A stretch of 64,000 nucleotides of DNA. It comes from Isurus oxyrinchus. Taxonomy: Eukaryota. The stretch covers positions 5,022,001 through 5,086,000 of the forward strand of contig JANJGN010000038.1 of NCBI GenBank assembly GCA_026770705.1. The letters run 5' to 3'. The notes under the pieces were generated by a model that worked only from the letters and a program-made list of their open reading frames with translations, searched no databases and had not been told where the DNA came from. This document shows, piece after piece, positions 1,222-1,417 of this stretch (its first letter is position 1; every line of letters starts with the position of its first letter). A program made the position numbers and the translations under genes.

Positions 1222-1417
1222 AAATAAAATGCTGCGGATGCTGGAAATCTGATATAAAAACGGAAAATGCTGGCAAAACTCAGCACGTCTGGAAGCATCA
1301 GTGGAGAGAGAAACAGAGTTAACATTTCGAATCCATATGACTCTTCTTCAGATCTCTGCTTCTCCATGGACAGATGCTGCCAGTCCTGCTGAGTATTTGT
1401 TCAGCATTTTTTGTTTA
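1222..1417 (-). mobile_element. Penelope-like element terminal-repeat remnant forming a foldback hairpin
   Basis: Inverted arms: aaaatgctggcaaaactcagcacgtctggaagcatc (~1264-1299) versus gatgctgccagtcctgctgagtatttgttcagcatttt (~1373-1410). Same family as the copies at ~21.4 kb and ~40.7 kb. The PLE assignment rests on the embedded hammerhead motif. Confidence 0.6.
1314..1358 (-). ncRNA. Minimal type I hammerhead ribozyme motif
   Basis: Minus strand reads CAGAGAT-CTGAAGA-A-GAGTC-ATATG-GATTC-GAA-ATGT-T-AACTCTG. This gives a CUGANGA box, a 5-bp stem II, a GAAA box, a near-palindromic stem III, a GUU cleavage triplet and stem I (CAGAG/CTCTG). Confidence 0.6.

Follow-up and report, generated by a model that had tools for sequence, protein, structure and literature searches.

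Does a hammerhead ribozyme motif in an immunoglobulin (Ig) heavy chain gene of the shark Isurus oxyrinchus cut the transcripts that carry it, and so tune the output of its gene cluster, or is it the remnant of a mobile element tolerated where it fell? The motif lies at the tip of a long hairpin near one end of the window (by which we mean the whole 64,000 nucleotide stretch of DNA analyzed here), and the initial annotation, which placed it in the J-C intron of an IgW gene, entertained both possibilities.

The host gene and its intronic hammerhead

The leader (5088-5043) and V exon (4916-4615), two D segments (approximately 4180-4193 and 3789-3799) lying between signal sequences, and a JH segment (3349-3396, with a 23-spacer signal at 3397) are all found upstream of the motif on the minus strand, which places the motif on the sense strand of the J-C intron as had been claimed. 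This J-C1 intron of approximately 8.0 kb occupies positions 1-3348 on the minus strand and continues past the window to an IgM-type C1 exon (L031:5349); the four C exons follow downstream of the window, together with a secretory tail and a membrane exon.

The IgW label fits the V exon but is wrong for the constant region. Specifically, i) the constant exons are 73-84% identical to a horn shark heavy chain C region, and 25-39% identical to Triakis IgW; the horn shark entry (P0002), labeled simply "Ig heavy chain C region, membrane-bound form", is one that we take to be an IgM constant region; ii) the make-up is that of a mu-type gene (four C domains, a secretory tail, and a membrane exon), and IgW-type constant domains are absent; iii) the V exon shares 61% identity with Triakis IgW V and 65-66% with V exons of the IgW loci on contig C88, compared with 47-50% for conventional IgM V regions, defined as V regions found with a mu-type C1; iv) in a phylogenetic tree the V exon groups with IgW V, and the IgM V clade stands apart with a bootstrap of 100; and v) the D-J region and patches of the intron are 67-72% identical to conventional IgM clusters (67-69% for the region of the two D segments). 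A PDB search did not discriminate between IgM and IgW. To judge from these sequences, the host gene is not IgW but a germline chimera of an IgW-type V with IgM-type D-D-J and C exons.

Our inventory of the genome places 5 IgW loci on C88, some 60 clusters of conventional IgM on C26 as well as other contigs, and some 50 clusters of the host gene kind on C38, C42, C49, C100, C20, and others. All nine paralogues examined have mu-type C exons. In seven of them the V exon matches with an identity of 87% or more across 79-100 residues (in one case across half the exon); the remaining two have, respectively, a damaged W-type V and no V in the stretch fetched. The V/D1 junction of the chimeric clusters falls within window 4607-4237 (window 3349-5088 with L031/L032; paralogues L179-L196 and L212-L215). 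The chimeric clusters appear to be expressed; J-to-C1 joins across the intron are found in 4/4 runs presumed to be RNA, and a 536-nt contig reads V-D-J-C1, the RNA contigs having been aligned to paralogue L193 with 7-8 differences per exon and therefore speaking for the family of clusters rather than for this exact one. Exchange of V regions between shark IgW and IgM clusters is known to occur somatically (PMC4279169 and PMC5192425); a fixed and expanded germline V/C chimera was not found in the literature searched, which includes part of PMC12227049 and whose reach does not extend to key papers. With about as many clusters as conventional IgM, the chimera is in our opinion a better lead than the hammerhead. 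Outside the window, the same J-C intron also contains a long ATCT-type simple repeat (L031, approximately 6000-9000) of strongly differing length among the paralogous clusters; it extends for about 2 kb here but is absent in L185 and L193.

The minimal type I hammerhead core (1351-1321), read along the minus strand, consists of CUGAAGA (1351-1345), an extra A (1344), a stem II formed by GAGUC (1343-1339) and GAUUC (1333-1329) with one G.U pair and AUAUG between both strands, GAAA (1328-1325), UG, and finally U16.1 (1322) and U17 (1321), followed by AACUCUG; the predicted cut is at 1321/1320. The invariant core CUGANGA ... GAAA ... UH is matched throughout by CUGAAGA, GAAA, and UU, bearing out the earlier reading that both catalytic boxes of the intronic copy are intact. 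Also present are the extra base between positions 9 and 10.1 (A1344) and the G10.1-C11.1 pair (G1343-C1329, pairing probability 0.998), which is G-C in 19 of the 22 distinct stem II segments seen in the family. No hammerhead was reported by an Rfam scan of the whole window with E up to 1, a silence that would be expected for a motif lacking stem III.

The core sits at the tip of a hairpin of 50 pairs plus bulges, with arms of approximately 63-70 nt and a folding energy of -69.5 kcal/mol (z = -6.5) which none of 200 shuffled sequences could reach. The proposal that a hairpin of about 60 bp extends stem I was therefore right in that the fold lies far beyond chance, but stem I itself is interrupted: the closing U-A pair, with a pairing probability of 0.06, gives way to an A.A mismatch (1353/1319), and the continuous stem I of 4-5 pairs is absent here (all four pairs are present in 36/58 family copies). 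Stem II and the third stem I pair nonetheless have probabilities >0.99 in the hairpin context. The short palindromic stem III attributed to the motif fared similarly; the family sequence ACGU has decayed to AUGU in the window copy, leaving a tandem wobble UG at positions 15.2-16.2 compared with a palindromic CG in 45/58 family copies, although the PLE origin that went with the claim is supported below.

Origin of the insertion in a Penelope-like element family

The insertion consists of two head-to-head pseudo-LTR ends of a Penelope-like element (PLE), one tailed and the other tail-less, within a target site duplication of 12-15 bp. The direct arm (1221-1351, minus strand) is a 5′-truncated pseudo-LTR end that begins at the hammerhead and is 79-90% identical to 20 dispersed copies picked for having an intact core; it alone carries the PLE "tail" (1221-1255, minus strand), approximately 35 nt in length and belonging to the longer 3′ end of the two that the family has, of the sort described in PMC3846280, PMC8557442, and PMC11167929. 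The inversion junction, together with the 5′ strand of stem I, occupies 1352-1355 on the minus strand (AGAU here, AGUU or AGCU in the family), and the inverted second arm (1354-1416, plus strand) has the shorter, tail-less 3′ end and stops before the core, so that stem I is extended and the core is not masked. The two copies of the target site duplication (1209-1220 at the tail end, 1417-1428 at the inverted end) match at 10/12 positions in the window, and perfectly in paralogues (12/12 in 11 of 45, including 3 in which the match is 15/15). Most fold-backs of this family differ in that the second arm holds an antisense core; the sole peculiarity of the window fold-back is that its inverted arm ends before the core, which stays single-stranded.

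The PLE origin suggested for the element is supported by open reading frames upstream of longer family copies, which encode a reverse transcriptase domain (RVT_1, E 5e-8, 33.3 bits, cut-off 29.6) and, in the same ORFs, a GIY-YIG match just below the Pfam cut-off (E 4e-4, 21.2 bits, cut-off 22.6). In these longer copies the ORF for reverse transcriptase and the GIY-YIG-like domain stops approximately 410 nt before the hammerhead, and a GIY-YIG-like stretch is also found upstream of copy L165, which is 86% identical to the window copy. By these sequence matches, which belong to family relatives since the window copy itself is ORF-less, the family is the pseudo-LTR of an endonuclease-bearing PLE.

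How common are such insertions? We sampled the large contigs in 80 evenly spaced stretches of 10 kb each (799,900 bases in all) and counted 96 strand-specific copies representing 83 insertion events, which extrapolates to approximately 5.2e5 family insertions per genome (Poisson 4.1-6.4e5, an interval that is too narrow for copies that are clumped, because 40 of the 80 stretches have no copy at all). The head-to-head layout is seen in 13 of the 83 events, or about one in six; when 14 head-to-head pairs were re-counted, 11 combined a long and a short end, one had two short ends, one had two long ends, and one was cut by the edge of its stretch, and most were flanked by target duplications of 10-16 bp. 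The core is not spanned by 18 of the 96 sampled copies. When copies are sorted by a simple motif rule, both boxes are intact in 9 older-type copies (n = 36), with CUGUYGA in 4 and broken boxes in 23, and young-type copies (n = 42) have CUGUYGA in 31 and broken boxes in 11. A 38-base intact core has 310 exact copies in the genome (none for the reversed control), from which the window core differs by three C-to-T changes (1335, 1331, and 1324). The chance that an intron of 8 kb contains a family copy is 56%, and the chance that it contains a sense copy with both boxes is 4%; 0.7 copies with both boxes intact are expected on average in each 64-kb window. The ribozyme itself thus matters little, being one among tens of thousands of similar cores in the genome.

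Comparison within the window reveals two further family copies, an older one (21368-21471, plus strand) in which the first box is CUGAAUA and a member of the young subfamily (40737-40894, minus strand) that reads CUGUUCA, includes a short inverted segment, and is flanked by a target duplication of 14 bp. Both first boxes are indeed broken as originally annotated, but the U at position 6 of the latter is a fixed trait of the young subfamily, as the frequency of CUGUYGA attests, rather than random decay. The young subfamily is 95-98% alike internally (window 40737-40870; L043-L072; sampled loci L073-L152), and many of its top matches have CUGUCCA or CUGUUCA (G8C), the query being biased towards these. 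By eye, inversion centers and 5′ truncation points fall a few bases upstream of C3 (L045, L055, L056, L080, L081, L102, and others), a clustering that looks as if copying had halted at the 5′ edge of the hammerhead. Several solo copies beginning TTAAC, adjoining the predicted cut, were not counted as evidence of cleavage because the letters upstream of them resemble the end of another repeat, presumably inserted there.

PLE ends of this kind have already been described. The metazoan PLE pseudo-LTR minimal hammerheads of Cervera and de la Pena 2014 (PMC4209133) resemble the window motif in the boxes, the extra base before stem II, the G10.1-C11.1 pair, and the lack of stem III, and they too are scattered in their thousands as single copies derived from truncated PLEs, in some cases as opposite-strand pairs; they differ in number (4,000-9,000 motifs in coelacanth and Xenopus, counted by another method, compared with approximately 5e5 family insertions here, of which approximately 5e4 have both boxes intact), and both the CG palindrome and one pair of stem I have disappeared from the window copy. 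Endonuclease-bearing PLE units, as described in PMC3846280 and PMC8557442 (and in PMC11167929 for the tail mechanism), share the head-to-head ends, a one-ended tail of 30-40 nt, and a 12-15 bp duplication of an AT-rich site; the window insertion is extremely short by comparison (approximately 196 nt).

The inverted-end layout has been published for PLEs (PMC3846280, PMC8557442), and reverse transcription by an anole PLE protein begins at two sites, one on either side of the tail, with both strands of the target being extended (PMC11167929). By analogy, a PLE endonuclease may have cut an AT-rich site in the ancestral J-C intron; reverse transcription may have started at two PLE start points to generate the long and the short end; and both cDNAs may have stopped early and been joined where stem I AGUU matches the reverse complement of AACU, a junction that would leave the core unpaired at the hairpin tip. 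Self-priming, as proposed in PMC3846280, could take the place of cDNA joining. The hairpin as a by-product of the PLE mode of insertion lends no support to a tuning function.

Decay among paralogous clusters

The unique flanks of the insertion identify 49 and 50 candidate loci in the genome, and every one of the 48 covered clusters carries the insertion, none having deleted it (a 49th cluster is cut by the end of its contig). A single insertion therefore predates the duplication of some 50 Ig clusters and marks their descent from one ancestor. No family copy was found in the J-C introns of the 4/4 conventional IgM clusters or the 2/2 IgW stretches examined; an empty orthologous site could not be placed there because those introns, which are patchily similar at approximately 70%, fail to align over 860-1800.

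An alignment of 45 clusters (window 300-2700, tree length 0.44) was used to compare decay with constraint. Variable sites make up 58/196 positions of the element (0.30) and 677/2205 positions of the flanks (0.31; Fisher p = 0.81), consistent with the more modest of the two original readings, namely a tolerated insertion. Within the hammerhead 12/31 sites vary among the 45 clusters, and within the invariant core 2/11 vary where 3.4 are expected (p = 0.29), a comparison that has low power and is weak because U16.1C is probably a single event. A self-cleaving element that tunes output, for which core decay at the background rate had been named beforehand as the refuting test, accordingly fares badly among the paralogues, within the low power afforded by 11 core bases. 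Changes at hairpin pairs tell a similar story: 21 break a pair, 11 are one-sided but keep the pair, 3 are gaps, and 0 are compensatory.

The invariant core is kept in 38 of the 48 clusters and has lost a base in the other 10, through G5A in L028 and U16.1C in nine clusters, which probably reflect one event; five stem II pairs, a Watson-Crick stem III, and the invariant core occur together in 6/47 clusters. The state of the core does not track whether the exons of its cluster are open: L037/L183-184 has open V and C exons but a broken core, and L033/L179-180 has stops in its exons but keeps the boxes. In five clusters (L010, L013, L014, L021, and L022) a change at window 1323 has converted the AUGU wobble to a perfect AUAU palindrome, a gain that represents one or two events and is compatible with chance. 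Younger PLE insertions are found in the same J-C intron of some clusters (two in L179, one antisense in L191, and one sense in L192), and a few transcripts may carry two family copies as a result. The clusters thus provide a natural series of core variants (intact, G5A, U16.1C, and restored palindrome) in one and the same intron, well suited to finding out if a solitary PLE hammerhead ever cleaves the pre-mRNA of its host.

Conservation above that of the flanks, the mark of a domesticated hammerhead, is not observed (p = 0.81 for the element; p = 0.29, with low power, for the core), and for want of conservation above neutral flanks we reject a domesticated ribozyme. The amniote domesticated hammerheads (RECK and others, PMC6155905) are likewise type I, located on the sense strand of an intron, and of retroelement origin; they are, however, conserved across species and described as close to the classical type I, whereas the window motif has no stem III and is as variable among paralogues as the flanks around it. 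We also reject a retrozyme, as there is one core only and no tandem unit from the leader to 20 kb downstream. Non-LTR retrozymes (bioRxiv 10.64898/2026.07.22.740005 and PMC7761336) are similarly PLE-derived, non-coding, and type I, but they are built of tandem units and carry at least two hammerheads, in contrast to the single core and inverted arm seen here.

Predicted cleavage and alternative readings

Could this copy cleave at all? Stem II is predicted at -2.5 kcal/mol in the window copy compared with -4.8 in an intact natural copy, and an intermolecular stem III, burdened by the tandem G.U, at +2.6 kcal/mol compared with -1.7; no second sense-strand family copy was found from the leader to 20 kb downstream. 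With a lone core, no partner in the transcript, and weakened stems I, II, and III, little or no cleavage is predicted. A lone minimal hammerhead without stem III would need a second copy or PLE protein to cleave. In PMC4209133, no cleavage was detected for a lone minimal hammerhead and little for dimers, and minimal hammerheads regained activity at high Mg2+ once a stem III had been engineered; in PMC11167929, an anole PLE hammerhead cleaved only with PLE protein, and insertion in vitro did not depend on the motif. Nor would slow cleavage within an intron be likely to block splicing, and introns cut by a hammerhead are still spliced, unlike those cut by the fast HDV ribozyme (summarized in PMC2995048). 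Our RNA contigs cannot show cut ends, and RNA depth over the element sums the whole repeat family and is uninformative on this copy; none of the RNA contigs reaches the unique flanks beside the element, a result that speaks neither for nor against cleavage. Tandem retrozymes are reported to be excluded from introns (bioRxiv 10.64898/2026.07.22.740005), in keeping with a scenario in which active forms would be removed and weak solo copies tolerated.

We conclude with high confidence that the element is a folded-back, 5′-truncated PLE end which inserted once in an ancestral cluster, was duplicated with it some 50 times, and is likely inactive and decaying neutrally. Regulation by the motif is not supported, with the reservation that the test on 11 core bases has low power. 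The bolder claim that a self-cleaving element tunes the output of this cluster is not supported, on several grounds: the core decays at the background rate, there is no partner in cis, and the hairpin is a by-product of PLE insertion.

The strongest competitor, overlapping with our preferred reading and differing from it in residual activity alone, is that the motif retains some catalysis without function, cleaving slowly under some conditions with no effect on Ig mRNA and under no selection. All invariant bases are present in the window copy, an engineered stem III can restore activity at high Mg2+ (PMC4209133), and splicing is possible despite cutting by a hammerhead (PMC2995048); but the A.A mismatch beside the core, the G.U in stem II, and the tandem G.U in the intermolecular stem III, along with the lack of detectable cleavage by single motifs in PMC4209133, make it rather unlikely.

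Far less probable is a co-opted intronic ribozyme, in which the fold-back would hold stem I and the core would cleave nascent Ig RNA in trans, by pairing of two transcripts or with the help of PLE protein, and so tune output. The sense orientation would suit such a role, as would an invariant core kept in most clusters and an insertion lost in none, the direction (if not the size) of the deficit of variable core sites, and the perfect AUAU palindrome gained in five clusters; moreover, the long hairpin could give stem I a firmer hold than it has in free copies, assistance of PLE hammerheads by protein is possible (PMC11167929), and domesticated intronic hammerheads are known in amniotes (PMC6155905). 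Against this, neither the element nor its hairpin shows excess conservation or a single compensatory change, the core is kept or lost without regard to open exons, the stems are weakened with no partner in cis, splicing across the intron is observed, and the element is absent from the conventional IgM and IgW introns examined. We wish to stress what would follow if co-option were nonetheless true: approximately 38 of some 50 IgW-V/IgM-C clusters would be damped by self-cleavage and the clusters with a broken core would escape, the first case of a retroelement ribozyme controlling an antigen receptor gene family.

Least probable of all, to the point of being nearly negligible, is that the hairpin matters as a structure, whether as double-stranded RNA affecting editing or the pace of splicing or as a DNA fold-back seeding breaks for exchange between clusters, for although the fold is very stable (z = -6.5), its position is common to some 50 clusters, and V regions do move somatically between shark clusters (PMC4279169), its pairs have been broken but never compensated, about a sixth of all family insertions are such hairpins, and the element adds no special homology because the clusters are 87-100% alike along the entire J-C intron.

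Two other features of the window deserve mention. A 54-bp satellite with a 27-bp substructure extends for approximately 13 kb (within 22202-37481) and contains long plus-strand open frames; apparent extra recombination signals at 23-33 kb were rejected, as units of this satellite mimic recombination signal sequences. Finally, an intron-containing tRNA gene with a UAU anticodon is located at 59290-59384 on the plus strand (Rfam, E 1.7e-8).
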